A stretch of 49,548 nt of DNA. Source: Eledone cirrhosa (lineage: Eukaryota). The notes beneath the pieces are model-generated. The model did not search any database. It saw only the letters and a list, made by a program, of their open reading frames with translations, and had not been told where the DNA came from. The DNA lies in assembly GCA_964016885.1 (NCBI GenBank), contig CAXHJY010000700.1, forward strand, positions 1-49,548, given 5' to 3'. Each line of letters starts with the position of its first letter. Within the stretch, counting starts at the first letter, position 1. A program made the translations under genes and the position numbers. This document shows positions 8,546 through 37,914 of the stretch, in pieces.

Positions 8546-8633
8546 TCCTCTTGATAAGTCGGCAGACCTCGCAAGGACTCTATATCTTTGATATATTGTT
8601 TTTGTTTATGCCACGAAACTACGTAGTCGAGGA
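8546..8633 (+). ncRNA. Hammerhead ribozyme, U3-A8 variant
   Basis: TCCTC TTGATAA GTCGGCA...TGCCAC GAAAC TACGTA GTC GAGGA; stem I TCCTC/GAGGA, palindromic stem III ACTACGTAGT, GUC cleavage triplet. Confidence 0.8.
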
Positions 8634-8864
8634 ATTTAGGAACAGTTTAGGTATGATACATTTTATTACTAATTATATCTAAATGTTTCTTCTCTCTTCA
8701 TAATGTATTTTTAACTCTGATACTGGTTCAGTCTGGTTCAAACTGAATTGGTCTGTCCCAGTCATTCATTGAGCAACATCGGTGAAGTTGGCACCCTTAA
8801 CTCACAGTTGGGTGCGGATGCATTCATGTATATATGTGTGTGTCCGCATGTATCTGTGTGTTTC

Positions 8865-8908
<44 letters not shown>

Positions 8909-8910
8909 AC

Positions 8911-9048
8911 TGTTTCTACTTTAGGCACAAGGCCAGCAATTACCCAGTGCATTACTGGTACTTTATTTTATCGACCCCGTAAGGATGAAAGGCAAAGTCA
9001 ACCTCGGTGGGATTTGAATTCAGATCGTAAAGGGACGTAACTATGCTG
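8911..9048 (-). mobile_element. 5'-truncated SINE family B
   Basis: Family B body. Confidence 0.9.
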
Positions 9049-9320
9049 GAATAACGGCGATGAATTAGTTTTGCGAGGTTTTTGATATGAAATCGTGTCG
9101 AAACAAATATTGTTATACTTGGGGAGGGTCATATTTGTGTAATAATATTGCCAGAATTAATAACAGAACACAAAACAATATATATATATACATCCTTTTA
9201 AAATATTTAAATATTCGAAATATTTCGTTTTAATCATTTTCTAACCCAGAAAAAAGAGAGAAATAAATAAAAAGGGAAAAAAAAAATTTTTCTTCCTAAT
9301 AATCGTCTTTTCTCCCTGCG

Positions 9321-9359
<39 letters not shown>

Positions 9360-9978
9360 CGTGTAAATGTTAGTGAAGTCTAACAGTTTAGAGCATATCA
9401 TGATGATAAAATAAATATCACTTTGAAAGTAAAGAACTATAGGTTATAGCCATAGAAACGTGAACAAGTATAACAACAACAAGACAATCATTACTAGCCT
9501 CATACCATGTTTGAAAATATATATGAGCTATATTTGACCATAGATTTTAGTGAGTGCAAAATATATTTGCGTAAATATTTCCGGAAAGTCAGAAGAATAT
9601 GAATTTCAAATCAAGTTTTATTTGTCTGGTTTCTCTTATTTTTCTTTGTCCCTTATATTTTTTTTACCATATACAATTTCCAGGACACCATATAATGTAT
9701 ATTGACAACAGATTAGTAGGTTACTTTATATTGTTTCATTGCTGTTGTTTAGCTCCAGATCAGACCTGGTCACACTGACCTCCGATCAAATAGATTCCAT
9801 CTAATAACATGCTGCGAATTTGTTTATTGTCAGGAATATTATTTCCAAGTCTATATGATATAATATATATATAAACGTTTGTATTTGTAAAGCCAAAACA
9901 ATGCAGGTATGGATATAGAATATAAATGCAAATGCTATTGTTGACAATTAGTCTTTTACCTTAAATTTATTTAAATAT

Positions 9979-10013
9979 CCTTAATTTTCGACATAATATC
10001 TCTTCTTCGGAGG
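9979..10013 (-). ncRNA. Minimal hammerhead-like motif (U4C)
   Basis: CCT CCGAAGA AGAGAT ATT ATGTC GAAA AT TA AGG. Confidence 0.5.
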
Positions 10014-10102
10014 GAAGTAAAGTGGTTAAACCAGCGTTCTAAATAGCTTGCCAAGTCATGACTTGCCAAGCTTTTAGAACGCTGGTTTAACCACTTTACT
10101 TC

Positions 10103-10137
10103 TCTCCGAAGAAGAGATATTATCTCGAAAATTAAGC
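10103..10137 (+). ncRNA. Minimal hammerhead-like motif (U4C)
   Basis: TCT CCGAAGA A GAGAT ATT ATCTC GAAA AT TA AGC. Confidence 0.5.
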
Positions 10138-11030
10138 ATATTTAAATAAATTTAAGGTAAAAGACTAATCGTCAACAATATCTTTTGCATTTGCATTTAT
10201 ATTCTATATCCATACCTGCATTGTTTTGGCTTTACAAATACAAACGTTTATACCTCATTACACAATGCTTCAAGTGAACTATAACTTCCTCAATATATAT
10301 ATGTATATTTCAACAGTATTCTAATAAATATTGCCTATACAGGTAATAAAAGTGTATATACATTTTTGGGGGACACCCTATATATATATTATATGTACAG
10401 AAAGATTATCTAGTAGCATCTGTTTTTATAGGTTGTTGTTTAGAACGACACCTTCCGTAAATTAGTTGAACTATAATCATAAACTTTCCAGCTGTGATCA
10501 TCCCATGATTTTGGTATATCAGAGACAATTACTCACTATTTTTCCCCCAAGAGATTTGATTGAAAAATACATGATACATGAACAGGTAGAAACGTTCTTG
10601 CCGATTGAAGCGTCAGTTTTAAGTGGCTGATCATAATGTTATAAGTTCAAATATTACTTTTGCATCTATTTTGAAAACTGTTTATGTTGCATTTTTTTTT
10701 TTTTATATAAAAGCAAAAATCATTTATCTATGCTGTTTATTCTACACCGAATTGATCCGTAATTCTTGGACAAGGTTCAGTGATTTGATCCTCTCACAGA
10801 TTTCATTCATTGAAGTGTAGCAAATCTTGAACACTGGCTTTCTATACTAAAGTCAAATACATTAACCATATTACATACAATTAAGTTAGTGTAAATATGT
10901 AATATTAATAGATTTAATGCAGGGTGCATTAAAACGTTAACTAGAAACAAAGAATCAAGCGTATTCAGGAAGCGTTGAACACATTTTAAATTTTGAATTT
11001 TGAACAGTGTTCAATTTTTTATGAATGAGG

Positions 11031-11283
11031 AGGAGCGTCGCCTAGTGGTAAGGGTGTTGGACTTACCATCATAATGTCGTGGGTTCGCGTTCAGGACTGG
11101 GCTGTGTGTTGTGTTCTTGAGCAAAACACTTCATTTTACGTTGCTCTAGTATACTCAGTGGAAAATGAGTACCAGTAATAGCTGTGTGTGGGGGAGGGGG
11201 GATTTTGTACTCTCAATCGCTTAACACCACCAAAACCGGGATAAGCACCAGATTTATGATCCCCTGGGCTCGAGACAGACTTT
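11031..11283 (+). mobile_element. Degenerate tRNA-derived CORE-like SINE
   Basis: A-box-like cgcctagtggt, B-box-like gggttcgcgt, then gtgttcttgagcaaaacacttcattttacgttgctc. Confidence 0.8.
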
Positions 11284-11673
11284 TCTTAATGTATCTTAAT
11301 ATAACCTGTTTGAACGCAGGTGTTTTGATTATGAAATATAGTCGAACAATTTGAGAATATAAGTTCCTAGAGACGGAACATATATTTGAAGCATATTTAC
11401 ATTGTGCTAAAAAACATACTAACTAAAAATATTTATCTTTTGAGAGTGATTGGTGGTAGGCAAACTGAATACATATAGGGCTTTTCGGTACCTGCGCCAT
11501 TGTAACTAAGGGAGATGACTTCTGTAAGGTTGATATTCTTTAACTTTACGTTACACGAAATATATAAATGGACGTAACGTCATTTGCTCCAGAGGGGCTC
11601 TAAATATCAGCCAAATTTAAATCATTCCACAAATAAATGACTTTGGGTAAAGTTCAAAATAGATGATTACTCG

Positions 11674-11764
11674 TTACTGCTACTGCTGTTGTTGTTGTTG
11701 TTGTTGTTGTTATTACTGCTGTTATTGTTGTTGTTATTGATGTTGCTGTTGTTGCTGTTGTTGT

Positions 11765-11795
<31 letters not shown>

Positions 11796-12125
11796 GTTGT
11801 TGTTGCTGTTGCTGTTGTTATTGTTGTTGCTCTTGTTGCTGCTGTTGTTGCTGTTATTGCTGTTATTGTTGCTATTGTTGTTGCTACTGCGGTTGTTTTG
11901 TTACAGCTGTTGTTGTTGCTGTTATTGTTGTTGTTATTACTGTTGTTGTTGTTGCTGTTATTGTTGTTGTTATTACTGTTGTTGTTGCTGCTGTTGTTGT
12001 TGTTGTTGTTATTATTATTGTTGTTGCTGCTGCTGTTGCTATTATTGTTGTTGTTCTTGCTGCTGTTGCTGCTATTTTTTAATATTATTTTTCTGGCTGC
12101 TGTTATTGTTATTGTTGTTTTCATT
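11674..12125. repeat. (GTT/GCT)n low-complexity tract
   Basis: Seen directly. Confidence 0.95.
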
Positions 12126-12225
12126 TGTTTCACATTGTATATTGTAATTCTACATTTTCGTTATCTTAATTAGGGATGTGATTAATTACATTTAGGGAAG
12201 TCGTCTTGATTTGTACAGAGTAGAT

Positions 12226-14460
12226 AAGATGATGATGATGATGATGATGACTAGGAGGAGAAGGATGGAAGATGGTGGGGACGATGGGGATGATGGTGAC
12301 GATGGGGATGACAAAAATGATGGTGGTAGTGATGGTTGTGATGGTGGCGGTGGCGATAGTGATGGCTTGGAAGAGCAAGGATGATGGTCATGATGATGGT
12401 AAACGATGGTGATAACTAGGAAGAGAAAGAAGGTTGCTGATGATGATGGTGATGATGATTGTAATGGTGATGTTAATGATAATGATGATAATAGCGATGG
12501 TGATGGAGATTGTGATGATGATGTTGATGGTGATGTTGAAGATGTGATGATGACGACGATGGTGATGACGATGGTGATGATGATGATGGTGGTGATGGTG
12601 ATGGTGATGACGATGATGATGACGATGATGATGTTGATGATGATGTTGAAGATGTTGATGGTGATGATGACGACGATGGTGATGATGATGACAATGACGA
12701 TGGCATTGATGATGGTGATGATGATGATGTAGATGATAAATGATGACAATGGTGATGGTGATGCTGATAATGATGACGAGGGTGATGATGGTGATGATGA
12801 TGGTGATGTTGAGGAGGACAACGGCTATGATGATGCTGCTGGTGTTTCTAATTAAGATGATGGAAGAAGTAATTATCGTAAAGATGGCGACGGGGATGAT
12901 TCTGACAAGCTGCTGCAGCTGCTGCTGTTGCTGACCAAGGTGATGATGATGATGGTGATTGTGATGGGTGACAATAACTAAGACAGATCTAATTAGAATA
13001 ATGATAAATGGTGATTAGGTAGTGTTGGTGGTGGTAGTGGTTGTGGTAGTGGTGGTGGTAGAGGTGGTGGTATTAGTTGTGGTGGCGTTGGTGGTGGTAG
13101 TGGTGGTTATAGTGGTTGTGGTTGTGGTAGTGGTGGTGGTAGTGGTAGTGTTGGTAGTGGTGGTGGTGGTGGTTGTGGTGGTGGTGGTTGTGGTGGTGGT
13201 AGTCGTGGTGGTATTAGTTGTGGTGGTTGTAGTGGTGGTTGTAGTGGTGGTGGTAGTGGTTGTAGTAGTGGTGGTGGTAGTGGTAGTGGTGGTGGTTGTA
13301 GTAGTAGTGGTGGTAGTGGTGGTGGTATTAGTTGTGGTGGTTGTAGTGGTAGTGGTGGTGGTGGTGGTGGTAGTGTTGGTGGTAGTGGTGGTTGTAGTGG
13401 TGGTGGTAGTAGTGGTGGTGGTAGTGACTGTAGTGTTGGTAGTAGTAGTGATGGTGGTAGTGGTTGCGGTGGTTGTAGCGTTGGTAATGGTGGTGGAAGT
13501 GATGGTGGTAGTGTTGGTAGTGGTGGTGGTGGTATTGATGGTGCTAGTGGTGGCGATGGTAGTGATGGTGCTAGTTGTAGGTGTTGGTAGCGGTGGTATT
13601 GTTGATGGTAGAGTTGTTGTGGTAGCGGTGTTGGTGGTAGTGATGGTGGTTGTGGTGATAGTGGTGTTGGTATTGTTGGTATTGATGGTAGAGGTTATAG
13701 TTTTAGCGCTGGTTGTAATATTAGTGATAAGGATGTTGTTGTTGGTGGTGTTGATGATGCTGTTGATGATGATGGTAGTGATGGTGATGGTATATGTGAT
13801 AGTGGTAGTGGTTGTGGGGCTCCTACGAGCAATAGTATTAGTATGGGTAGCTCAGGTGGTGATGGTAGCCAAGTTGGTTACGGTGATGTGTGATTCCAAT
13901 GTTGGTAACGGTGGTGGTGGTGTGGCTGGGAGGGGAATGAACATTTGAACAGACGGCGGCGGGCATGAGCTTGTCTTTAAAAATATAGGACATTAAATTA
14001 ATGAGAAAAGAATGGGCACATTGATGTTTTTGGTGCGGGGGGGGGGTAGTATGTAGGAGGGGATAAAGTATGGCAAGGAGACAAGGAAACCGAAGAGGCA
14101 GTATATGATGGTAATGATGATGTTGATGATGATAATGATGATTGTGATGGTGATGGTGATGATGGAGATGATGATGATGATGATGATGATGATTGTGGCC
14201 ATGATGATGATGATGTTGTATGGTGATGATGATTGTGGCGATGGTGATGATGATGGGGATGGTGATGATGATGGTAATGATGATTGTGGCGATGGTGATG
14301 ATGATGGGGATGGTGATGATGATGGTGATGATGATTGACGCGATGGTGATGATGGTGGTTGATGGTGATGATTATGATGATGATGGGATGATGATTTTTA
14401 GCGTTTGTAGTGATGTCTCATGTTTTTAAATGAGTATGATGATGATGATGATGATGAAGA
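12226..14460. repeat. (GAT)n and (GGT/AGT)n trinucleotide tracts
   Basis: GAT-rich 12226-12970 and 14105-14460; GGT/AGT-rich 13010-13925. Confidence 0.95.
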
Positions 14461-14542
14461 AAAAGGAGGAGGATGGGAGAAGAAAATAAATAAAGAAAAA
14501 TAGATGATGATGGAGATTTTATTGTTGTTGTTATTATTATAT

Positions 14543-14730
14543 AGGGCGGTGGGTTGGCAGTATCGGTAGAGGGTCGGACGCCATGCTTTCTAGCATAGAG
14601 TTACGGCCCTTGTCATTCTAAGTTCAAATCCCGCCGAGGTTACCTTTGCTTTCATCCTTGCGGGGTCGATAAAATAAAGTACCAGTAATACACTGAATAA
14701 TTGCTGGCCTTGTGCCATAAGTAGAAACAA
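14543..14730 (+). mobile_element. SINE family B, full-length head
   Basis: gggcggtgggttggcagtatcggtagag...gttcaaatcccgccgagg...ctttcatccttgcggggtcgataaaataaagtaccag...ggccttgtgcc, then (ATT)n. Confidence 0.92.
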
Positions 14731-14768
14731 TTATTATTATTATTTATTTATGATGATAATGATGTGAT

Positions 14769-15125
14769 TCTCTTTCTTCTTCTTCTTCTTCTTCTTCTTC
14801 TTCTTCTTCTTCTTCTTCTTCTTCTTCTTCTTCTTTTCCTTCTGCTTTTCCTTCTTTTCATTCTTCCTTCTTTTCCTTCTTCTTTTCCTTCTTTTCCTTC
14901 TTCTTTTTCTTCTTCTTCTTCTTCTTCTTCTTCTTTTCCTTCTTCTTTTCCTTCTTCTTTTCCTTCTTCTTTTCCTTCTTCTTCGTCTTCTTCTTCTTCT
15001 TCTTCTTCTTTTCATTTTTTTCTTCTTTTCCTTCTTCTTTTCCTACTTCTTTTCCTACTTCTTTTCCTACTTCTTTTCCTTCTTCTTTTTCTACTTTTCC
15101 TTCTTCTTCTTCTTCTTCTTCTTTT
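14769..15125. repeat. (CTT)n tract
   Basis: Seen directly. Confidence 0.95.
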
Positions 15126-15354
15126 TATGACTGGATAAGGACCATATTGATAATGATGATGATAAGACTGCGGTAGTTACATGTGTGGTGGTGGCGGTGG
15201 CGTTAAGGTGTTATAACTTGAGACGGTTAAAGTAATATTTAAATAGAACAGATGGAGAATAGTCACCTTATACAGAAACCAGACAACACCACACCACTCC
15301 GCCCCGCCTAACTACAGCCATTACCTCTATCACCAAGGCCAACAAAAATACGCC

Positions 15355-15890
15355 AGCAACACATATCACCACAACAACACCATACACCCGGGAACACCAC
15401 CACCACAACAACAACAACAATCACAACCACCACCAAAACAAACACCATCATAACCACCATCAAAATCAAAACCATAACCACAACTACAACCAACACCACC
15501 ACCACCACTATCATGACAACAAAATACACCTCCACCATCAACATCATCACCACAATCCCAGCAACAACAACCATCAACATCACAACAACAAAAACATCAT
15601 CCTCACCACCACCACCACTACAACAACAATAACAACCACAACCATCACCACAGCCATTACCATAATATCAACAAAATACACCTCCACCATCAACATCATC
15701 ACCACAATAACAGCAACAACAACAACAACCATCAACACCACAACAACAAAAAAAAACATCATCCTCACCAACACCACCATCACCACTACAACAACAATAA
15801 CAACCACAACCATCACCATAACATCAACAAAAAAGCACCTCCACCATCAACATCATTATCGTCAGCAGCATCACTATTACCACAAACAGA
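15355..15890. repeat. (CAA/CAC)n tract with internal higher-order repeat
   Basis: aacaaaatacacctccaccatcaacatcat recurs near 15520, 15670 and, more loosely, 15830. Confidence 0.85.
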
Positions 15891-17047
15891 AACACAACTA
15901 GATGATTAATTAGGCTTTCATATCTTAAATTGATGTGCCTTGTGACCAATTTAATTATGTGGCCAGGAACAGGTTAGTAGTAGTAGTAGTCGTCGTAGTA
16001 GTAGTAGGGGGAGGGGGGGAGCAGTAGTAGCTGTAGGAAGAAGGGAGAAGGGAGAGCAGTAGTAGCTGTAGTAATGGGGTTGATGTTGATGGTATTGGTA
16101 GTTTCAGTGGTTTTTATTGTTATGGTACACACACACACACATATATATGTATATATCTATGTGTGTGTGTGGACGTGTTCATCAGTGTTTTTTGAGTTTG
16201 TGCGTGTATGCATGTGTATATATTTATATGTGTGCGTGTGCGTGTGATGAGCGTGTACCTGTATCCCTAGTTTTGTTTGTTTACATCGCCCTACATATTC
16301 GTGATTTTTCTTTTTATGTTCCGTATCTTTAACTGTTCAATAAAAAGAAATCGACAAGTAATCGACGTAAATCAATATTGGGTATCGATAGATCTTACTA
16401 AATACCTTCAACTGTTCCCATATCGATAGGTACTATTAAATACCTTGAAGGTATTCAGTATGGGGACAGTTCCTCCATATTTAGTCGTAGCTTTATCTAG
16501 TCGGTGAGTTGGCTCATTTGCTAGAGCTTCGGATTAAATAGCACGATACTTGTTTCAGTTATGTTTGTTGTTGGAATTGGTTTCTTGGAATTGCTTGATA
16601 TATAAAGTACCAAAAATGTGTCGGTTACTAGATACATAAAGTACCAAATAAAAGTCGTTGGTAAGGTGGAATTGCGAAATACATAAATTACCAAACCAGG
16701 GTCGTTGGACCCGTGGAATTTCTAGATACTTAAAATAACTATTAGGATAGTTGATATCGTGAAATTGCTATGGTGTCAGATGGACTGCTTTGCAGTTCTA
16801 GCGCTGGGAGGTTCTGAGTTCACATCCTGTCTCCACTCATCAGAAAAGGTGACACTTCTGCAAGGAATCATGATCAGCATTATATTATCATCGAAGTTTC
16901 CTTGCGCCAATTTAAGGATATTCTCCTTTCCTTTCCAATTGCAACATTCTCATAGAAATTGCTTCTAAGTTCATTTTCGTAATTAAATTTCTTATCAACT
17001 TCAAATATTTCTTTCTCTATTTGTTGGTGCATTCTACAGATATACAC

Positions 17048-17590
17048 CAGGCGTTGGCAAACTATTGCTCAAAGAATAAATCTGGCCTGCAGCTTGATTT
17101 TATCCGGTCCATAGACGTCATTGAATATATGATGTTCTATATTAAAGATCTTTATTATCCTTATCAATCTTTGGTAAGCACTGAACTAATGTATTATTTT
17201 CATTTTGTTTTTAACATATATATTTAGATATTATTTTATGTAGAATTTCTGAGCTTGCTGTGCTTTAGCAAAAGAAATATTTTTATTAGCTTATAATTAA
17301 AGGATGCTTTGGTATTACGAAACATCTGCTCTTTTCGTTATCCTTTATATCACCAGTGAAAAACATTGATTTCATTCTTCGTTAAACATTTATAATGAAA
17401 ACAACAACAGAAAAAAAAACAAAAAAACTCACACACACAAAAACAAAACAAACAGCATAACAGTAATTAAAACAACAAAACTGCGTTAAAAGCCTTGCAT
17501 GATCATAGTTTCATTTTCTATTCCTTTTGGCCCACAAAATATAGAAATATTTCTAATCAGGTCCGCCCCTAAAACAGTTTCATAAGTCTT
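17048..17590. mobile_element. Old hAT (Charlie/MER58-like) MITE
   Basis: Left end caggcgttggcaaacta...aaatctggcctgc; right end tttggcccacaaa...aaatattt...aaaacagtttc, resembling Charlie-type termini. Confidence 0.55.
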
Positions 17591-17687
17591 TTATTATCAA
17601 ATCAAAATCGAACTGATAATATGTCAGTTGTTTACTAATCAAATTAGATGAAAACGGTTTTTCCGATTCCATGAATCCCTTAACAAT

Positions 17688-18065
17688 CGCTTCTAATATA
17701 AACTCGAGACCAGTAAATTTTGGGGAAGGGAACGGCGATTATATCGAACCTAGCATTTATTTGGGATATATCTTATTTATCCTGGAAAAAAAAGGCAAAT
17801 TTGACCACGGCGGGATTTGAAATCAAAACGTAAAGAACCAGAATCCCTACTGCTAAGCAGACACCCTAACAATTCTCTCAATAAAACCGCCGTCATGAAA
17901 TCTTTGATAAAGATGTTTAATTTAGGCGCAAGACCAGCTAATGTTTGGAAAAATTAAGTCGATTACACCAACTGAATGATTTGGATCATATTTAGTTTAA
18001 TATGCCTCGGAAGGAAGAAAAAGAAAGCTGTCCTCGGCAGCATTTAAACCTAGAATGTAAGAACT
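17688..18065 (-). mobile_element. Two highly degenerate family B SINEs
   Basis: aaaggcaaatttgaccacggcgggatttgaaatca at ~17790; aggcgcaagaccagc...cctcggcagcatttaaac at 17920-18050. Confidence 0.65.
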
Positions 18066-18448
18066 CAGAACCAATCCACCATTGTCATAAAGCTATCAAT
18101 AACAGGGCTATATAGACAGTTTAAGACAGCTTTTCTGTTGATGAAAAGATCTCCATTAAAAATGAAACTGACGAAGGGGTCGCCATTTTCCTGTCAACTC
18201 GCCAAATGCATTAAAAAAAGATGTGTACAGCCGAACAGTGTATATAATTAAGTTTAGTAAAATTCGAATTAATTATGTTTAATTCACACGCTCATTATGG
18301 GCTGAAACATATAGATTTAATCTATTGTAAATTAATACATTATGGCATCGAAGAAACACGGTTAAACCGTCACTAATTTATACATACATAGACACATTTA
18401 CATACACACACACACACATACACATATATATATAAATAAATGTGTATG

Positions 18449-18480
<32 letters not shown>

Positions 18481-19547
18481 ATGTGATTGCATTTAAATAC
18501 ACACACATATTAGTATACATATATTTATATATATATATGTGTGTGTGTGAGACTGCATTTAAATATATACACATATATGTATATAATATATACATATACA
18601 TGTATATATAGACATATACACAAATATGTGTGCATATACATGTATATATAGACATATACACAAATATGTGTGCATGTATATATTTATGTGTGATTGCATT
18701 TAAATACGCACAAATATATGTATATAATATATATATTTATATATATAAATAAATGTGTGTATGCATATATTTATGTATGATTGTATTTAAATGCACACAC
18801 ACATACATAGATACATATATATATATATATATATAATATATATAAAATATATATATATGTATGTATGTGTGTGTGTGTATGTATGTGTGTATGTATGTAT
18901 GTATGTATGTATGTGTGTGTGTGTCAGCTATATTATTCATATATAAACATACAAAATGTCCAAGAGAACAGTGAAACTATCAGCAACATCATTAAATGTG
19001 TTACTAAATACGATGTTCAAATATCTATTTATAACATTAAATGATGAATTAATGATGTCGACATTGCCTTCATCTACCGCCCCGACCCTGGGGGCCACCA
19101 GCCATGACAAAAGAGAGAAAGGAAGAACAATAGAAGGACTTCAAAGGAGAGTTGAGAGTAGTTAGGGCTGGTGTAAGAATGGTATAATAGCCTTGTTGTA
19201 ATATCTTGATTTAAGGAATCGATCAATGTCCAGATGGTACCCTAATAGGATCCGTCTTACATGGGTGTGTAGTAAAACTGTTTCTATCTCTCTCACCTTT
19301 CACTCTCAACGCAAAATTCCCTCTCTCTCTCTTCCGTTATATATATACACAGACATAGATAGATATATGTGTGTGTGTCGGTGTGTATATATATACACTC
19401 ATAAACTCAAACACGCAGACGTAATGTCTGTGATATATATATATATATATATACACACACATATACACACACATATACACACACCCACACACACACATAT
19501 ACACAGCCACACACATATATACACACACACACATATATACACACACA

Positions 19548-19668
19548 CTGAAGAAGGGCTTATGCCCGAAATATCGTCCCCCCCCACTCTCAAGAGCGTG
19601 AAACTAATAAACCTAATAAACCTTTGTTCGTACTGCCCCTCTGTTGTGTTCCCGTTCCATTTTTCACT
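19548..19668 (+). ncRNA. PLE-type hammerhead core (5' strand of stem I lost) plus tail
   Basis: CTGAAGA A GGGC TTAT GCCC GAAA TATC GTC CCC; tail ends in (TA)n. Confidence 0.7.
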
Positions 19669-19692
19669 ATATATATATATATATATATTTAT

Positions 19693-19997: not shown

Positions 19998-20042
<45 letters not shown>

Positions 20043-20075
20043 GTGTGGCTGTGTATATCTGTGGGTGTGTATATA

Positions 20076-23394: not shown

Positions 23395-23507
23395 TGTTCA
23401 AATCCTGCCGAGGTTAACTTTGCCTTTCATCCTTACGGGGTCGATAAAATAAAGTACCAGTAATGCACTGGTTAATTGCTGGCCTTGTGCCAAAAAGTAG
23501 AAACAAT
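23395..23507 (+). mobile_element. 5'-truncated SINE family B
   Basis: gttcaaatcctgccgagg...ggccttgtgcc...gtagaaacaatt. Confidence 0.9.
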
Positions 23508-23520
23508 TATATATATATAT

Positions 23521-26882: not shown

Positions 26883-26883
26883 T

Positions 26884-26914
<31 letters not shown>

Positions 26915-27302
26915 ATATATGTGTGTGTGTATATATGTATATATGTGTGTGTGTATATATGGATATATATACATACATATTATGGAAGTATGCATGTATG
27001 TATATATATTTATACGAATATACACACTCTCACACACATTATACACACATACAGAGACATATAAAATATGTATTTATATTGATGAATATATATGTATTAT
27101 ATAATATATATATATATATATATGAGGGTGTATGTGTGTATGAATGTATGTATACGTGCATGTATGTTTGTATGTATAGGTACACACACACGCGCACACA
27201 CACACACACGTATATATAATATACATGCAGATACGCATTTATATTAATGTATAATCTGTGACCTGTAAGATCCTGTGTGCGTCATTTGTATAACCTTCAT
27301 AC

Positions 27303-27356
27303 ATAGTCATCTTCACAGCCGACTTTCACCGGAAGCTGTGCTGACGTGTCAGCCAT
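27303..27356 (-). CDS. Candidate first coding exon MADTSAQLPVKVGCEDDY
   Basis: aaagATGGCTG context, CTTCCGG and TGACGT motifs, donor gtatga; no homology recognised. Confidence 0.25.
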
Positions 27357-27476
27357 CTTTGCTCCTGTGTTCCGAATTGATGGGGAAATTGAATATAATA
27401 AACATTTAATATTGCACTGCGAATAGTTAATGAGTCCTCTGTGTTTTCACAATGATTTCCGCACATATGTCTTTAG

Positions 27477-27584
27477 ACTGTAGCACCGAACAGGAAATGG
27501 AATCTTGTAAAAGGCTGTCTGAAATTGGTTTCACAAATGTCACTGACGTAACAACTACAGTCTTCGAACGAGAAATGCAATACT
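27477..27584 (+). CDS. Candidate 108-nt phase 1-1 exon (CSTEQEMESCKRLSEIGFTNVTDVTTTVFEREMQY)
   Basis: Acceptor gtctttag, donor gtaaat, open frame with normal composition; no homology recognised. Confidence 0.3.
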
Positions 27585-27662
27585 GTAAATTTCCAATAAA
27601 TTCTGAAAACAAAATAGTAAAATTATTGAATAGCCAGATGCATAATCATAACCGCACACACG

Positions 27663-27711
<49 letters not shown>

Positions 27712-28049
27712 TGATGATGAGTATGAACAAGCATACACTCATCTCTCTCACTACACACACACTTTTATATATATAGTATGCTACTATTAAAAAAAAATTG
27801 TCTGCTTACTTCATATCTCTATATGAATGTTAGATGGATGTAAGATTTTTATCTCCGTCTAACACTATTGCTTGAAACCTTCTTTTTTATTGTTGTTGTT
27901 GATAAAGTGTCCAATTAGGTAGGAGTTGTTCACAAGCCGTCGTTGTATCCGACATATGAAACAGTAAACCTTCCAACAAACGTCTGGTACAAGTGAATAT
28001 TCAAATGAACAACAATTTAATACTACTCGAACCACCATCAATAATATAT

Positions 28050-28165
28050 ATAACGAAGGAAATGTGGTAAGGAACCAGGTGGACCATAACGCACCAAAGT
28101 ACTCAATACTTGGTCCAGAATTAGCCGTCGAAACGGCTTGAGCTCAGCCGTCGGGGTCTTACTTG

Positions 28166-28168
<3 letters not shown>
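28050..28168. mobile_element. Fragment of the 19693/34175 family (inverted tail joined to forward hammerhead 3' half)
   Basis: 28050-28110 is the reverse complement of the family tail; then gtccagaattagccgtcGAAACggc..gccGTCggggtc. Confidence 0.8.
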
Positions 28169-28200
<32 letters not shown>

Positions 28201-28271
28201 GCCGAGTTTTCATATTTTCCTGAGAATCCTAATACACTCCCGTCTCAAAACTCTATTTTCGAGTTAATTTA

Positions 28272-28324
<53 letters not shown>

Positions 28325-28432
28325 GTATAGAAATATCGTATTTCTAAAAAAAACAGGGTTTTAGGAAGCCGTAGCTAGGCAAACACAAGGGCTAACGCCC
28401 TCTGGTGGTGTCCAGCAGAAGCAAGGGGGACA

Positions 28433-28476
28433 ACCGTCTATGCATTTCAGGCTTGACTGGCCTTCGTCAGGACGGT
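28433..28476 (-). ncRNA. Minimal type I hammerhead ribozyme (intact)
   Basis: ACCGTC CTGACGA AGGC CAGTCAA GCCT GAAA TGCA TA GACGGT; all core positions and stems intact. Confidence 0.9.
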
Positions 28477-28797
28477 CTGTCCCACCGCTTGCGATCGCTG
28501 AACCAGAAGACAGCCGAGAATATATAGTTTTCTCCTATGTGTAAATGAGGTGATTAATCTCATTTGCTTATGAAGCTGCATAAGTTGGCTCAACTTATAA
28601 TAGAAAAGAAATAAGATTTTGCGTCAAGCATAGCTTTATACAAATATGTATAGAAATTTCGTATTTCTAAAGAAACACGCCCTCTGGTGGTGATGCAGCT
28701 TCATAAGCAAATGAGATTAATCACCTCATTTACACAGACGAGAAAACTATATATTCTCGACTGTTTTCAAGTCCAGCAGTCGCAAGCAATAGGAGGG

Positions 28798-28841
28798 ACC
28801 GTCCTGAAGAAGGCCAGTCAGCCCTGAAATGCATAGACGGT
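28798..28841 (+). ncRNA. Minimal type I hammerhead ribozyme
   Basis: ACCGTC CTGAAGA AGGCCAGTCAGCCCT GAAA TGCA TA GACGGT. Confidence 0.88.
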
Positions 28842-28976
28842 TGTCCCCCTTGCTTCTGCATAGACGGTTGTCCCCCATAGCTACGGCTTCCTGAAACTGT
28901 GTTTCTTTAGAAATACGAAATTTCTATACATATTTGTATAAAGCTATGCTTGAAGCGAAATCTTATTTATATATAT

Positions 28977-29007
<31 letters not shown>

Positions 29008-29008
29008 G

Positions 29009-29450
29009 ATTAACTCGAAAATAGCGGCGATCACTGTAGAAATTTTAGTCCAAACCTGAGGGGTTCTCTTGATAGGCTCTAAGCCTCATGGATAATACCA
29101 TGATCGGATATATCCACAAAGTACGAGCGAAACTATCGATAGTCGGGACTAGAGGAATTTTGGTAAAGTTTATATGCATTTTTTTCTTCACACTTATATT
29201 TTAGACTTAAATCCGTTTAATTGATTATTCGTCTAGTTAATTTCTACGGGCTAAGAGGAAAGACGCGATACATTTTATCTGACTGTTCCTCGCGGAAAAT
29301 AGTCTGTATCATTTGTCTATTATTTCTTCAAAGTTACATTTTAAACTTATAGCTCCGTTTAAATGATTATTTATCTGGTTGATTTCTACGGACTAGGGTG
29401 AAGAAAGACTGGGTATATTTTATATAATAATTCTTCAAACTTGCAATTTT
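29009..29450 (+). mobile_element. PLE-type insert with hammerhead and duplicated downstream segment
   Basis: TA-flanked; ctccgtttaa.tgattatt..tct.gtt.atttctacgg.cta...ttcttcaaa occurs twice (~29210 and ~29353). Confidence 0.65.
29065..29148 (+). ncRNA. Hammerhead ribozyme, U3-A8 variant (A9G)
   Basis: TCTC TTGATAG GCTC...GAGC GAAAC TATCGATA GTC GGGA; palindromic stem III ACTATCGATAGT. Confidence 0.7.
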
Positions 29451-29474
29451 ATATATATATTTAAAAAATAACTG

Positions 29475-29675
29475 GAACTCGAAAATAGAGTTTTGAGTCG
29501 CGAGTGTATATATATATATATATATAAAAATTAACTCGAAAATAGAGTTTTGAGTCACGAGTGTATATATATATATAAATTAACTCGAAAATAGAGTTTT
29601 GAGTCGCGGGTGTATATATATAAAAATTAACTCGAAAATAGAGTTTTGAGTCGCGAGTGTATATATATATATATA
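29475..29675. repeat. Four ~35-bp units separated by (TA)n
   Basis: aactcgaaaatagagttttgagtcgcgagtg x4; same motif at 29011 and inverted at ~28240-28270. Confidence 0.92.
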
Positions 29676-30075
29676 CATTATGGCCCGCCCGGCTGGCGTC
29701 CGGCTTGGTATACCTGCTCCTACCACTCCACTGCAAAGATACCACACACCCTCCCGTGTCACATTGTCCTTCCGACTCTCTCTCTCTCTCTGAATAACTA
29801 ACATTTTAATTGTATCTGTCTCTGTCTAATGGCCTATCTCTCTTTTTTCCCCTCCCTCTGTTTTTCTGTCTCTCTCTGTAGATGTGTGTAGTTTTCCTAA
29901 TCTTTCTCTAAATCTCTCTCTTTCTCTCTATGTGTACATATCGAAGGGAGATACGGAAACTAAAACAGTGTTGTCATATAGAGAGTGAAGTGCGACAATG
30001 AGAGAGAGTAAAGCAGTTAAATGCTAGAGAGGGGGAATGATCTTACATATATAGATGCATACATATAAAGTATAG

Positions 30076-30119
<44 letters not shown>

Positions 30120-30520
30120 TATGCTAACAACGACAGAAAAAGTGTGTGGGATACATACATTATTATATTTGTCTGTATTTTCGTTCTGCAACCATTATAT
30201 TATGATATTTGTATCCAAATGATTTTATATGTATGTATTACCTGCTTGCCTGTCCCTCTGTTTCTCTTTCCCTGTCTCTCTCTTTATCTCCTCTCTCCTC
30301 TCTCTCTCTTTAGATGTGTGTGTGTGTGTGTGTAGTTTTCCTAATCTGTCTCTTTCACTCTCTGTCTCTCTAAGAGGGTTGCCTTTTGATGTATGTATTA
30401 CCTGCTTATCGAATTTGAAGGAGGTTATCCTTTTCAAATAAACATACATACGACGCTCAACTCTATCTTGATATATGATATAAATAATGGGATTGATGAG
30501 TTAATATCTCTATACAACAA

Positions 30521-31320
30521 CTACAACAGTACGCGATGGAGCCCACTCGCAACCCCGGCGGACAGAATGGAGAAGGCGTTTCCCCGGAGGACAGCAAGGA
30601 AGACGCGCTGGAAAAGCCACTCCAACTCGCGGGGCTCACACCTGCGGCTGGCCAGCTCAGCGCCTATGGTGGTGAGTAAGGAGGTAGCCCTGGGGCTGAG
30701 GACACCAGAAGTCTCCACAGCCAGGAGTACGACCGCAAACCTGTCGGAGAGCGACTGGTATTTGAGGAGTTTGGCCCCCTCAGCCCGACGTGCAGAGAAC
30801 CTGGGTCAGTCGCAGACTGCACCAGGTTGCGGCTGAAGAAAGTGTCTGTGCAAGTGGAATCCCAGATGAGGGGTTTGCCACTGCGGAACGGGAAGATGGT
30901 CATGCCATCTGGCCTTTTGCCGTCCCCTCGATCCAGCCCCACCGGTGGAATGCGGCCGGCACTGTGGCGACAGGAAAGCGGGTGGAGGCCAAAAGAGTCC
31001 ACGGTGGAATCGCAACGACATTGGTGTGGCTGGCAGATCCGGAGGCCGAGCCTCAGGGAAACTCCGATGCGCAGGCTATGGTTGTCTAGCTGCGTGCCAG
31101 TGGAGAAGGAGGGCAGGGCATGGAGCCAGGCACCATTGTGGGATTTGGAGGCCGCACGAAAACAAGCAAGGCAGTGCTGGTCGAGCTGGCGCGTGAGCCT
31201 TCTGAGGCCAGGCTGCACTGGATGGCATCCCAAGTGCGTTGGGAGGGGGGGACTTGAAGTCAACAGGGGGAGAAGGAGGAGCGACGTCTACTAGGCTAAG
31301 TCCCAGCCGGTCCCACGTCT
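30521..31320 (-). pseudogene. CRE-clade non-LTR retrotransposon 3' remnant (zinc knuckle plus restriction-like endonuclease)
   Basis: GAWLHALP...LRLG...CRC...GLHPLSC...DGKRPDG...LIWDSTCTDT; frameshift near 30795 to AEGAKLLKY...AVETSG...LFQRVFLAVLRGNAFSIL. GC-rich; apparent internal deletion between RIP and PVGL. Confidence 0.85.
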
Positions 31321-31556
31321 TATTATTAAAAAAACTTCTTGCCACTAAACCTTAACCCTTTGTGCCACATTCATCTAACTGTTGACCAACAAATACAAAG
31401 TAAACAGAGCGTTGACAAGAACGATGGCGAATGAATCTTCGAGATAAGCAGCTTCCTCCCGAGCTGTTAGATCACGCGGTATTCTCTGCTACACCTTTCC
31501 GTAATAATACCGAACAACGTACTGCTGGTCACTCCTTCCTCCAAAAGCCGTACAAA

Positions 31557-31645
<89 letters not shown>

Positions 31646-31649
<4 letters not shown>

Positions 31650-34167
31650 CAGAAGTACCTGGCGTTGCCCGGGTGTAAGTTGACCTTTGGTCTGTTAGAA
31701 TGTGTGAAAGTTACTTCCCGCGCATCACAGGTTCAAAACTTCGAACTTCAATGAAAAAAAATAGGTTAGTAGACACAGGTGTGTAATTTATTAATTGTAG
31801 TTACACAGTGTATCATTGAAATTGTTCTCTGCACGACTGACTGAAGTCAAAATCGCTTGATATTGAATGTTCAGTTAATTTAAAGCAGGGTGAAAATGTC
31901 GATTACTTTCAGGGTTTTTTTTTTTTACAATTTTTGCGCTCACATGTGCAGAAGAAGAATTAAAAGGGCCTTTATCTTAACCGCGGCATAATGGCGAGTC
32001 TTTTGTGACAGTTTTCAAGAATATAGGACGTTCCTGTAAAAAGTTTTCCCATGTGTAACTTTGCCTTGTTTTTTGGCGCAAAGTCGAGCCCCGCTTCAGT
32101 TTTATTGATTTTTTACATCAATGCGTGATCTCTGAAGTAGATTTGAGTAGCTAAAAACCCGTCCCGGTAAATTTGCTATAGGTGAAAAAAAGTGTATCTA
32201 GAGTTATTGCCCTTTGCCACAACCTCAAGCCTCGTCTGACGGGATGTTGGTGATTCCTCCGTCAGCGCTTGTTGGCGACGAAGGCGAACATCAACAAGCC
32301 TTGTCGTACGTGATGTTGGTGACTCAACCAGCTGGGAAACACGTCTGTCAGCGAGTCGAGATTCGCGCTCAGCAGGTGTTTCCTAGAGAAAATTAATTAA
32401 TTCTACTGGTTAGCTAAGCCAATGGCAGTGTCAATAGTAAATGAGAAAAGTCTAACATGAACAAAAGGGAATCAAGGTAAGACAATAAATTTAATATAAC
32501 TACGATTAGAATGTTGTAGTTGCTTAAAAGTGGTGACAGTTAGGATAAAGGCAGTACTTGCTAACATTAAGGGAGAATATGGCATAAAGGATTAATCAAT
32601 TGTGAATGAACTCATAACTGAGAACGCCTAATTCGTTGTCTCAAAGCAGTAGCTGTACCTTTTTTGGAGGTAAGTCTTGAACGTTTCCGTGTGGGCATAA
32701 CGACGTGTAACGAAGCTGTTAGGTTAGAGAGAGGTGATTAAATACAGAGAGAGATGACACCAGATTCGTTAGCATGGTTACTGGTGAATGGGAAGGTTTG
32801 GAAATATGATTACAATAACTTACCGAATTTTCCGGTCTATAAATTGCACTTAAAATAATTAAATTTAATCAAAAAACAGCTCTGCGCTTTATACTCCGGT
32901 GAGCCTTATGTATAAATAATACAATGGTAATCAATCACGGCTCTAACAGAAGTAATAGATCTAGACTAAAAGTAAAGAAGATAGCATTTTCCTGGTTGGC
33001 CTTACACGCCGTTGCGCGGACCTGATTTTAAATGATACGCCTTATATCCTGGTGAGCCTTATAGAGCGGAAAATATCTATTGGAAAAGAATACGAATTCA
33101 TGACCAAGGTGTGACAAAATAGGCGTCTATACAGCGCCTGAAACAACGAGAAAAATCCTAGGGTTTTGGACAAGTTTTTTTCAGGCGCTGTATATCCATC
33201 CACCCAAAAGGAACCGTTTTTTAGTTACAAAAAATAACCAAAGAGTATAGTAGCTATATTTCTGACATATCATGCCAAAAAGAACAATATATTCAACAAA
33301 TTTTCTAAAGTACATTCAATCTCTCTTTTTGACCGATATCTTAATAAGCAAGTTATCGATTTTTTATTGGCTGTCAGTGTCTATCTGCATGCAGGTGTGC
33401 ACGTGTGCGCAATTAATTGCAAATACGCTCATAACATTTAGTCGTAAGCAGAACAAAAAATACCATTAGAGGTGGGCTAATAATGAAGACACAAACCCTG
33501 GTGAACTTACGTTTAAACACCCGAAAAGTTACTCACTTCCTGTGCAAAAGACTGTATTATAAATTAAGTAATTTTTTAGAATCTTTTGTTTAAAAAAGGA
33601 AAACATTGGTACGGAAGTAACATTTTTTACAACTTTGTATGTGTACAATACAACTTGGTCAACGTATTATTTAGTAATTTTTTTTCAAAAAGCATGATTA
33701 TTTAAGACTGTTTGAAAATTTACTCATAGCTTTTAGCATCACAAAAGACACCATTAAATTTGGTTCCCTTTTCAGATAGGGATAATACTGTATTTCCACT
33801 TGAATAAGGTGGAATATGAAAAGATAAACTCTTTAATGGTCGGTCGTTTACTGAGACAGCTGGGAAGACATGCAGCTGGCCGTCCAATCAATAACGCACG
33901 TCCTTATATGGGCATATGAAATTTATTTTTATTGCGCCAGATGTAAACTAAGAGTTCTTGTGTTCGAATTCACATAAAATTTCACTGGAATCGAAAAACA
34001 TTCTGTCATAGGGCCCGATTACCGATTTTTCGAAAATTTCAAGTAGCCTATTCCACTCTACGCGTTGAGTTTTATATATGTGTGAGGTTTCATGAAAATT
34101 GGATGAACGGTGTAGCATGCAAGTTGGGAACACCAAACAATGTCCATCTTCCCTTTATATATATAGA
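31646..34167 (-). mobile_element. Non-autonomous Helitron-like element
   Basis: Minus strand starts A|TCtatatatataaaggg (34167) and ends with hairpin acccgggcaacgccaggt plus acttctgctga (CTAG degenerate); intact homologous end at 35221-35251. Confidence 0.65.
32823..33077. mobile_element. Tc1/mariner (Tc2-like) MITE nested in the Helitron
   Basis: TA|ccgaattttccggtctataa ... ttatagagcggaaaatatc|TA; subterminal repeat tata.tcc.gtgagccttat twice. Confidence 0.7.
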
Positions 34168-34174
34168 TATATAT

Positions 34175-34369
34175 ATAGGAAAAAGTATGACCCCGACGGC
34201 AGAGCTCAATGCGTTTCGACGGCTATTTCTAGTCCAGAAATAGCTGTCGAAACGCCTTGAGCGCTGCCGTCGGGGTCATACTTTTTCCTATTTCCCACTC
34301 TACTACCCTAAGTATTGAGTACTCTGGTGCGTTATGGTCCATCTGGTTCCTTATCACAATTCCTTTGTT
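34175..34369 (+). mobile_element. Fold-back element plus tail, same family as 19693
   Basis: Hairpin 34175-34291, tail almost identical to 19809-19886, flanked by TA. Confidence 0.85.
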
Positions 34370-35220
34370 ATATATATATATATATTTGTTATAAGAACAG
34401 ATTAAAGTTTAAGCAAAGAATCGCTGCTTTCAACATTAACGGGATCTTCTGAAACTGAAAAATTTAATCTGTGAACGCAGAAGTAAATATTTCGAGAAAC
34501 GTTGCAACCGAAGGAAAACAGGAAGACGATATTTTGGTTCGTGAAGACGTTCCCTGGTAATGAACGGAAAAAAGCGACGATAATACGTCGTTATGTGGAC
34601 CGAGAAGAACAATTTCCTGCAAAGACAAGACCAAGTTTATGGTGTAAATGGAGTCGTTAGACTAATATTCTATTTAAAATAACCGAATGATTTCTAGCCC
34701 CGGAGTTTAAGAATGATGTAAAGAAAATTGAAAACGAAAATGACAAAGGTTATTAAACTAGTAAAATTAAATAGTGAAGATTTAGGCCAGTACATATGTA
34801 TGACCCGACGGACATACACATACATATACATACGCACACACAAATAGATACACACAAACGCACGCGTAAACCTTATACATTTCTACAGATATAGGTTACA
34901 CTATGTACTTATGTACTTTCTAATGTACTCCGGATGATTATGGGCACTTTCATTTTTCCAGATATTGATTATAGGACCTTTAACCGCTTACTTGGAGGCG
35001 ACTGAAGCACTGCAGTGCAATGCAACAAAACGTCAAAACTTGACACATCGGCTACGTTTATTCTACAGATGATTGTGAACTCTCAGAATTGGCACATATT
35101 GAGTAGGGGACCCTTAGGAGCAGGAACCCCCTTTTGGAAAAAGCAGATGATTTTGTAAAAGTATAGTTATCAAAGCAGCGCTGAAGTATTGACATAAATG
35201 GTATACATAACTGGTATTTA

Positions 35221-35251
35221 ACACCCGAGCAACGCCGAGTACCTCTGCTAG
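35221..35251 (+). mobile_element. Helitron 3' terminus
   Basis: acacccgagcaacgccgagtacctctgCTAG|T; 5' end not located. Confidence 0.7.
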
Positions 35252-35254
35252 TAA

Positions 35255-35370
35255 ATATATAAACATATAATATATATAAAGACACACACACACACACACA
35301 CTCATATAATAAATATATATACATATATATATATAAACATAAAATATATACACACACACACACTCATATA

Positions 35371-35425
<55 letters not shown>

Positions 35426-35995
35426 ATCTCTAAATATATATCTAAAATATGCGCAGATATATATATATGTATAACACATACATATATTTCTATATACATA
35501 CATATACTTACACACGCACTCACACATAGACATAGATATATACATATATATATACAGGAAATATACATACGTATACATGCCCACACATAAATATATATAT
35601 ATATATATATATTATTCATACATAGACGTAATAGTGAACAATCTTCTTTATGTCCAATACTATTGATTATCACCATAGTGATTGATGTACACAGTTATTA
35701 AGAATACATTCAGAGGAATGCAGACATATATAAGATCATACATACACAAATATATATACATATTACATATATATATAAGTATATATGTATGCATATATAT
35801 ATATACACATAGATAAGAATATATATACATATTTCATATATTTAAGTATATATTATATATGTATAATGTATGCCTATATACTTATATAGGGTATATATAC
35901 TTATTGCATATATATATAAGTATATATATACACAAATAATATATATATATAGTATATATATATATATATAAAGTATATGTATACACAAATATATA

Positions 35996-36044
<49 letters not shown>

Positions 36045-36384
36045 GTGTATACACAACTATATATACATATTATATATAAGTATATATATATACACAAATA
36101 TATATATATATTACATATATATAAGTATATATATATACACAAATATATATACATATTACATATATATAAGTATATATATACACAAATATATACGTATTAT
36201 ATATATATATATACATATAAATATATGTATACACAAATATATATACATATTATATATATGTATATATATATACACAAATATATATACATATTACATATAT
36301 ATAAGTATATATATATACACAAATATATATACATATTACATATATATAAGTATATATGTATACACAAATATATATACATATTAC

Positions 36385-36415
<31 letters not shown>

Positions 36416-36714
36416 AATATATATACATATTACATATATATAAGTATATATATACACAAATATATCCATATTATATATATATATATATCATTCATATTGA
36501 AAATTCTACATTAAAATTTATATAAGGGTGGTTCTTTTTTATTTCAATCAATTTCTTTTCCAATATCAACCCAAGTTTAATATGTTCATAAATTGTATTA
36601 TAAAAACGCCAACAATTTCACTGAATAGAATATAAAATATTATAAACAACACATGACCTAATCCGTGTATATATATATATATTCTTATATATATGTATAT
36701 ATACGTATAAAATG

Positions 36715-36750
<36 letters not shown>

Positions 36751-37065
36751 GACACACATTTATATATATATATATACAGACACACACATATATATATATA
36801 TACACAGACACACACATATATATATATATACACAGACACACATATATATATATATATATATATACACAGACACACACATATATATATATATACACATATA
36901 TATATATATATATACACACACACATATATATATATATATATACACACACACATATATATACACACACATATATATATATATATAAATATATATATACACA
37001 CACACATATATATATTTATATATATACACACACAAAGGGGTAGTCACACACACACACACACACAT
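35255..37065. repeat. TA/CA-rich micro- and minisatellite region
   Basis: Includes a ~40-bp unit acacaaatatatatacatattacatatatataagtatat over ~36050-36480. Confidence 0.9.
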
Positions 37066-37338
37066 AAGAGTCTAACAACCATATTTTAACAATAAAATAC
37101 ATACACAAATGTACGGGAATATATTTTTATCACTCAAGTAATTCAGATTTTCAAAATTTGATAAAGACGTGCAGGATAAAAAAAAAATACCATTCACACG
37201 CACATACCCTACATATATATACACTCACTCAAACACACAAATATATATATACACACGCGTCTATATATATATATACACACGCGTCTATATATATATATAT
37301 ACACACGCGTCTATATATACTCACACACACTCTTACTC

Positions 37339-37371
<33 letters not shown>

Positions 37372-37372
<1 letters not shown>

Positions 37373-37676
37373 GTAGAAGTTCTATTTAAATTGTTGGGAT
37401 ACAGCAAACAAATATTTTTATAACTGATATAAAGCACTCAACAAATTATTGGTGTGAAAATACGATATATTAACAAATGGAAACTATATTTATAAAATCT
37501 AGCTTCCAACAGAAATGGTCGCATTCTTTAAGGGTATGTCAATATTTATTTATAAAACTGATCTGTATTATATTTTATCTGAAGAAACCACACCATAATT
37601 TAACTTGGTGTCCTTGAAATATGTATAATGAAATAAATATGGTTTTATAAATATAGTTTCCATTTGTTAATATATC

Positions 37677-37680
<4 letters not shown>
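37372..37680. mobile_element. PLE-type element: inverted tail plus forward hammerhead unit; family of 23521
   Basis: 37372-37497 is the reverse complement of the 23521-family tail; 37460-37497 is inverted vs 37643-37680. Confidence 0.8.
37571..37635 (+). ncRNA. Type I hammerhead ribozyme
   Basis: TATTTTAT CTGAAGA AACCACACCA TAATTTAACT TGGTGTCCTT GAAA TATGTA TA ATGAAATA; two mismatches near the base of stem II. Confidence 0.75.
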
Positions 37681-37718
<38 letters not shown>

Positions 37719-37817
37719 GTGTATATATAATGTATTTTGCAATACACTTTATGCTTAATTAAAAGCATTTTGAAGACCGTAAGCTATTGTTTTAAAGTAG
37801 TGACAAATTCACTCACT

Positions 37818-37914
37818 TTGATCTCAGCAAACAGGGGAGATAAGCCGACATGACATGTTTCGCTTTTGTTGAAGCTTATCAAGGCCAACTACCCCACCTG
37901 TCTACTGAGATCAA
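37818..37914 (-). ncRNA. Hammerhead ribozyme, U3-A8 variant with long stem I
   Basis: GGCC TTGATAA GCTT CAACAA AAGC GAAAC ATGTCAT GTC GGCT; stem I extends as TTGATCTCAGTAGACAGG / CCTGTTTGCTGAGATCAA. Confidence 0.85.

Follow-up and report, generated by a model that had tools for sequence, protein, structure and literature searches.

A window of 49,548 nucleotides from Eledone cirrhosa, the whole stretch analysed here, raises the question of how hammerhead ribozyme cores reading TTGATAA or TTGATAG in place of CTGANGA are to be understood, either as decayed copies of families with an ordinary C3-G8 core or as an inherited U3-A8 state that is maintained for catalysis. The sequence-only reading had favoured the latter and had implied that the variant was new, which it is not. 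Natural U3-A8 hammerheads were reported as a rare variant with several examples in 2011, in a paper that also cites earlier in vitro activity of U3-A8 double variants (Perreault et al., 2011, PMC3088659), and in work on Cercyon Penelope-like elements (PLEs) of Schistosoma mansoni, about 1,300 U3-A8 minimal hammerheads outside the standard descriptor were described (Cervera & De la Pena, 2014, PMC4209133).

Motifs with these cores are present at all four sites that had been named (8551 and 29069 on the plus strand, 8148 and 37882 on the minus strand), and they belong to three families. The family A type I motif (8546–8633, plus strand) comprises a stem I of 5 bp (8546–8550/8629–8633), the core U3-A9 at 8551–8557 reading TTGATAA, and GAAA at 8615–8618, with, by sequence and fold, a long helix II, a palindromic stem III strand and predicted cleavage after C17 at 8628. 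An inverted hammerhead of identical sequence (8066–8153, minus strand, core at 8148) belongs to one and the same insertion of a 591-nt non-coding family A unit (7994–8873), being located in its 5' inversion. The inverted part (7994–8211, 100% identical) and the forward part (8214–8873) both end in (TA)n; the copy at 8148 is therefore not independent of that at 8551. Family C is represented on the minus strand by a type I motif with a long extended stem I (37812–37914; core TTGATAA at 37882–37876, GAAA at 37861–37858, C17 at 37847) in an insertion ending in (TA)n (37707–37959), which holds positions 273–316 and then 1–209 of a 316-nt unit. The motif of family B (29065–29148, plus strand; core TTGATAG at 29069, GAAA at 29129–29132, C17 at 29144) lies in a 5'-truncated solo pLTR of a Penelope-like element (29024–29463, plus strand) directly after a (TA)n tract. 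Besides the two changes of the 3/8 pair it has A9G and a single mismatch in stem I; since its exact 5' context recurs nowhere else in the genome and family B possesses A9, it is a decayed copy, so that the description of all motifs as otherwise intact is retained for A and C but not for this one.

Judged by sequence and structure, the motifs of the three families are real type I hammerheads. U4 G5 A6, A9, G12 A13 A14, A15.1-U16.1 and the NUH site are all present in A and C, members of family B keep the full catalytic core with the window copy failing at A9, and positions 3 and 8 are Watson-Crick complementary in all three. Constrained folding is compatible with three helices around the core and an open helix I; for monomers this fold lies above the minimum free energy by 1.1 kcal/mol in A, 5.3 kcal/mol in C, and 9.8 kcal/mol in the window copy of B versus 2.7 kcal/mol in a copy with A9 (L176). 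The family C motif, with its long extended stem I, folds into a structure that 0 of 200 shuffles equal in stability (z -7.1), whereas for the A and B motifs folding does not surpass that of shuffled sequence (z -0.98 and -0.31); despite this, both are multicopy families with palindromic stem III strands. The palindrome is perfect in A (10 nt, self-duplex -12.9 kcal/mol) and B (12 nt, -15.5 kcal/mol) and has one mismatch in C (-10.5 kcal/mol), and stem II and the stem III palindromes differ in sequence yet remain paired. A structural scan returned 27 hits in real sequence versus 0 in 1.19 Mb of reversed control.

In keeping with the expectation that CUGANGA-based searches would miss these motifs, the Rfam gathering thresholds miss all three. 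Family C aligns to the whole of the Rfam model RF02275 (Hammerhead_HH9, clan CL00010) with 31.3 bits (E 2e-6 in a 181-nt search), yet remains below the gathering threshold of 52, neither A nor B is matched by any hammerhead model, and in a scan of the whole window the 150 of 352 matches listed were miRNA families on microsatellites, with no hammerhead among them. Nor are A, B and C strict minimal hammerheads, which lack helix III and have a base left unpaired between positions 9 and 10.1: here G10.1 directly follows A9, and helix III has 3–4 bp. In comparison with the Cercyon hammerheads of PMC4209133, U3-A8 covariation, a short helix I, a large helix II, a palindromic helix III, close inverted pairs and, for family B, the pLTR location are shared, whereas the missing unpaired base, the helix III of 3–4 bp and the occurrence of U3-A8 also in non-coding tandem families are not; the motifs are closer to the small-palindromic-helix variants of that work.

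Whether the families as such carry U3-A8 was assessed with patterns and locus comparisons. With positions 3, 7 and 8 left free, family A gave 5,884 genome matches, and 99 of the 100 listed were U3-A8, the remaining one being U3-G8; in family C all 100 matches listed (of 544) were U3-A8. For family B the core was readable in 19 of 30 loci, the other 11 being truncated, deleted or damaged and hence left out, and all 19 were U3-A8, while N7 was T in eight, A in eight and G in three. The alternative of CTGATGA consensuses with independent decay is not borne out, and U3-A8 is an inherited family state in A, B and C. Genome-wide, one pattern found 8,443 U3-A8 and 5,372 C3-G8 cores, far above the control patterns (303 and 79), while C3-A8 (165) and U3-G8 (155) were close to background (183 and 95). 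In a systematic sample, U3-A8 accounted for 6/23 and 11/27 of structurally intact motifs, between about one quarter and two-fifths. The 3-8 pair covaries both in this genome and in the survey of Perreault et al. (2011), where U3-A8 was rare. None of ten multi-copy clusters, whose loci were chosen partly by core class, had a mismatched majority (four U3-A8, six C3-G8). Two recurring hits with mismatched cores, one U3-G8 (L284-type) and one C3-A8 (L253-type), were not counted as hammerheads, being without stem I and next to long unrelated frames that, by eye, resemble other retroelements.

Copies descend from few masters and are not independent events, so copy counts alone do not show selection, and to this extent the earlier claim of selection on catalysis needed other support, which may be seen in the near-background mismatches and in homologous C3-G8 families. 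It could be argued that the hammerheads are dispensable passengers, and that AT-biased mutation together with drift established U3-A8 in a small number of masters, after which it was amplified. Both changes, C3 to U3 and G8 to A8, are indeed AT-ward transitions, and a double mutant by chance was seen once: L082, at first taken with L151 (84% identical) as a pair of sister families with opposite cores, proved to be a lone U3-A8 copy (1 of 100 matches listed) in a C3-G8 family of 4,322 copies. Moreover, PLE minimal hammerheads cleave poorly in vitro, and the motif is not universally required, since Naiad PLEs reach very high copy number without canonical hammerheads. However, drift predicts families with a single change to be commoner than those with two, and none was found; positions 3 and 8 also stay paired while N7, loops and stem sequences vary. 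We thus consider the passenger explanation very unlikely.

In agreement with the claim that the three families are unrelated, A, B and C are mutually unalignable apart from a weak 39-nt stretch between A and B (3.9 bits, E 0.045), which does not establish homology. The autonomous PLE at L033, with a C3-G8 motif in its pLTR, was rejected as a relative, having only simple-repeat similarity to A and none to B or C, and none of the loci compared proved to be a C3-G8 relative of family A. For the other lineages such relatives exist. A pattern for the C superfamily gave, among 100 of 109 matches listed, 68 C3-G8, 25 U3-A8, 3 C3-A8, 0 U3-G8 and 4 other cores, and its C3-type subfamily is recovered as a clade when positions 3, 7 and 8 are masked (support 98/99). 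The family B profile matches a C3-G8 family with 35.7 bits across its length, and family E, from a profile of two sequences, matches one at 15.6 bits with the core masked. With both paired states in homologous families of three lineages, at least three compensatory switches are likely on sequence grounds; such family pairs are not described in the main text of PMC4209133, as far as considered. A reversion to C3-G8 in the C superfamily, suggested by a first tree, is not established: once a C3-G8 relative had been added, AU tests left standing both the monophyly of U3-A8 (p 0.196) and a grouping of both C3-G8 sets (p 0.311).

How the state changes is a separate matter. Between the C subfamilies, positions 3, 7 and 8 change together within six bases while stem II is identical, which could also come from short sequence transfer. 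It is conceivable, though we find it doubtful, that the required paired core is replaced in a single event, with another hammerhead element serving as donor in template switching or gene conversion, and not through one point mutation followed by a second; donors with either core number in the thousands, and an intermediate family was not found. Stepwise change likewise expects rare, short-lived intermediates, however, N7 varies freely elsewhere, and the flanking stems I and II fit the lineage and not a donor. This alternative concerns the route only and is compatible with selection for the paired core.

Only in family B does the repeat flank RT and GIY-YIG frames as a PLE pLTR does: at L346 RT pieces follow it after ~430 nt, and at L347 GIY-YIG pieces precede it. 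These frames are broken and were recognised by tblastn against PLE-like frames of other loci; Pfam gave sub-threshold RVT_1 in two of four frames scanned and nothing else. Families A and C look like non-coding retrozymes, their units being head-to-tail, with copies truncated or inverted on the 5' side and a constant 3' terminus in (TA)n (A: spacing 591–597 nt, GC 0.418, longest ATG frame 75 aa; C: 316–317 nt, 0.339, 28 aa). Metazoan non-LTR retrozymes, for which mobilisation by PLEs was proposed, are similarly tandem units of low GC without coding capacity, each with a single type I hammerhead (Cervera & De la Pena, 2020, PMC7229834), but A and C differ in their U3-A8 core. Both C (316 nt, 34% GC) and A (591 nt, 42% GC) are under the 45% GC given for retrozymes; C fits the usual monomer of 170–400 nt in the abstract of that paper, and A exceeds it but is within the 150 to over 1000 nt of its Discussion. 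Runs X1 and X6 assemble family A into one 591-nt cycle, which tandem DNA yields as well, and substitutions among 19 copies (A>G 9, T>C 8) are without A>G excess. Among the loci compared, neither A nor C could be assigned an autonomous partner.

We therefore favour, with considerable though not full confidence, the explanation that U3-A8 is inherited in three multicopy retroelement families whose masters likely need a paired core for RNA self-cleavage in retrotransposition. By analogy with published PLEs and retrozymes, multimeric transcripts would be cut after GUC, probably with the help of dimers that pair through the palindromic stem III; a host ligase would close the monomers into circles, which would be copied into TA microsatellites by the RT/endonuclease of a PLE. 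Few families would arise from masters whose 3/8 core is unpaired, and lineages are accordingly expected to alternate between C3-G8 and U3-A8 only. The majority of copies in the genome, among them that with A9G at 29069, would decay neutrally afterwards. That an active-like fold is kept for recognition by a PLE protein or host factor, and not for cleavage, we hold to be improbable: the 3' ends of genomic copies are indeed fixed at TA-rich sites beyond the motif, on its downstream side and not at C17, and the authors of PMC4209133 leave other roles open, but every catalytic residue and the NUH site are retained, and comparable invertebrate retrozymes cleave efficiently. More speculatively, and with low confidence, U3-A8 may be a co-dominant core here, with lineages flipping repeatedly, possibly both ways, between states that differ in cleavage rate and so tune the output of multimers, monomers and circles; if true, the close pair of C subfamilies would offer a naturally matched experiment on how a catalytic tertiary pair evolves by compensatory change.

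As the variant itself was already known, the added value is practical and evolutionary. Censuses based on CUGANGA would overlook the U3-A8 share of this genome's intact motifs given above, including a family of ~5,900 copies, and the homologous families of opposite state supply natural sequence pairs for kinetic tests. Whether weakly active retroelement hammerheads are under selection had not been decided by the work of 2014. That homologous families are fixed for one or the other Watson-Crick state, and that none was found half-way between them, is comparative evidence for selection on the active fold, and the paired-only pattern across related families likely reflects selection for RNA self-cutting.

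A structural scan of the window recovered all four U3-A8 sites of the sequence-only reading, in hammerhead families A (8551, plus strand; 8148, minus), B (29069, plus) and C (37882, minus), as well as five canonical C3-G8 motifs (28804, 37579 and 42440, plus; 28470 and 22792, minus), which brings the total to about nine hammerhead motifs in 49.5 kb. The copy at 8148 is the inverted 5' part of one insertion with (TA)n flanks, and the core at 29069 carries A9G besides U3-A8. An imperfect inverted repeat at 28312-28942 contains the 28470 and 28804 motifs. Long inverted repeats at 9870-10252, 7002-7661 and 38970-39192 (about 380, 126 and 220 nt, respectively) are like MITEs or products of inversion. 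A dispersed SINE-like repeat of about 170-190 nt, presumably resembling an octopus repeat, occurs in many copies (5374-5542, 5883-6059, 8907-9051, 14553-14737, 23396-23510, 38223-38601, 39192-39372 and others). The GC-rich segment 30664-31294 contains 200-aa open frames on either strand, the minus-strand one looking by eye like a retroelement C-terminal fragment, and 42595-49124 is a near-pure TA/TG microsatellite of about 6.5 kb in a microsatellite-rich genome of 3.0 Gb (G000), of which the window is contig C727. GIY-YIG PLE-like elements in this genome suggest an animal, and it may resemble octopus genomes.

The feature is real, and U3-A8 is a family-level state. A 22-base stretch spanning the family A core has 5,987 exact occurrences genome-wide (control: 0); with positions 3, 7 and 8 left free 5,884 matches were obtained, 99 of the first 100 being U3-A8, and in four public runs under three organism labels no other letter reached 10% at positions 3 and 8 of this family. 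Its units of 591-597 nt (42% GC; longest ATG frame at most 75 aa) are arranged head-to-tail and share a mean identity of 96% (24 partly redundant units); at 30 loci 5' truncation was variable, 5' inversion frequent and the 3' end mostly at unit position 183 or about 348. Family C (544 matches, all of the first 100 U3-A8) has 316-317-nt units, arranged in tandem and with inversions as in family A, 3' ends at unit positions 209 or 235-240 that continue into (TA)n, and an alignment to Rfam HH9 scoring below the gathering score. The 5' context of the window's family B copy is unique in the genome, and 175 matches with at most one mismatch were obtained when the search was anchored on its 3' half. 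Among 30 loci examined, 11 were truncated, deleted or damaged; all 19 readable cores were U3-A8, with N7 as T (8), A (8) or G (3), and A9G occurred in one locus. Since the family B repeat enters a broken RT frame at one locus (L346) and follows a GIY-YIG-like frame at another (L347), it is regarded as the flanking repeat (pLTR) of a Penelope-like element (PLE).

Genome-wide, a single pattern with short loop II yielded 8,443 U3-A8 and 5,372 C3-G8 cores, a ratio that is not the genome's own, because the pattern counts some copies twice and leaves out families A and B as well as motifs closed by other pairs. The mismatched classes numbered 165 (C3-A8) and 155 (U3-G8), and reversed-pattern controls gave 303 U3-A8, 79 C3-G8, 183 C3-A8 and 95 U3-G8. 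Many of 60 mismatched-core loci inspected by eye were recognisable single mutants of paired families; the remainder had no hammerhead stems. Evenly spaced samples of 990 kb contained 14 C3-G8, six U3-A8, one C3-A8 and two other cores (control: two), and a revised scan of 1.19 Mb, which takes in the 990 kb, contained 15, 11, one and none (control: none). At least four further multicopy U3-A8 families with different stems occur across the genome (e.g., L207, L210, L191, L137), and C3-G8 tandem families with 469-nt and 311-nt units form arrays of up to 15 copies (L221-L235, G000:C1:14.04-14.05 Mb; L124).

The three families had been called unrelated, which holds insofar as A, B and C have no alignable sequence in common, except for a weak 39-nt stretch shared by A and B downstream of the cleavage site (E 0.011-0.015; 3.9 bits in another comparison). 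Better evidence is the presence of both paired states within single lineages. The first 100 of 109 matches to the C superfamily pattern comprised 68 C3-G8, 25 U3-A8, three C3-A8, no U3-G8 and four other cores, and with positions 3, 7 and 8 masked the C3-type copies formed a supported clade (84 rows thinned to 63). Homology to C extends to a second C3-G8 family (26.7 bits), B can be aligned collinearly with a C3-G8 family at 35.7 bits, and the further U3-A8 family E matched a C3-G8 family at 15.6 bits with a two-sequence profile that found no match in control families. If the C, B and E lineages are separate, at least three core switches are required whatever the root. A fourth candidate, L082, was rejected as chance double decay inside a C3-G8 family (first 100 of 4,322 matches: 90 C3-G8, four C3-A8, three U3-G8, one U3-A8, two other).

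Mobilisation is inferred to follow steps described in PMC4209133 and PMC7229834: multimeric transcripts would cleave themselves after C17 (8628 in A, 29144 in B, 37847 in C), probably assisted by pairing of palindromic stems III in dimers, monomers would be circularised, and a PLE RT/endonuclease would put copies into TA tracts. Retrozyme mobilisation by PLEs is itself a proposal there; insertion in tandem or inverted form and a preference for microsatellites are known from PLEs (PMC8557442). A near-intact autonomous PLE-like element (L033; G000:C1:5000001-5010000, minus strand 1445-6168) has an RT plus GIY-YIG-like frame of 852 aa preceded by another frame, and its pLTRs, 497 nt long and 99% identical to each other, carry a C3-G8 motif; a fragment of 89% identity lies at 49126-49377 of the window. 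It is a possible helper for the TA-targeting non-autonomous families, with which a search for common sequence found none.

Neither the U3-A8 variant nor the classes of element are new: PMC4209133 reports U3-A8 in about 1,300 Schistosoma motifs and low in vitro activity, and PMC3088659 reports natural U3-A8 hammerheads and cites earlier in vitro activity (Przybilski and Hammann 2007). No report of core switching within a lineage was found in the literature covered, which comprised a minority of the subscription papers and main texts rather than family-listing supplements. Selection probably maintains U3-A8 in the master copies; it would act on these rather than on the thousands of genomic copies. 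What is new is the quantification and the pairs of homologous families.
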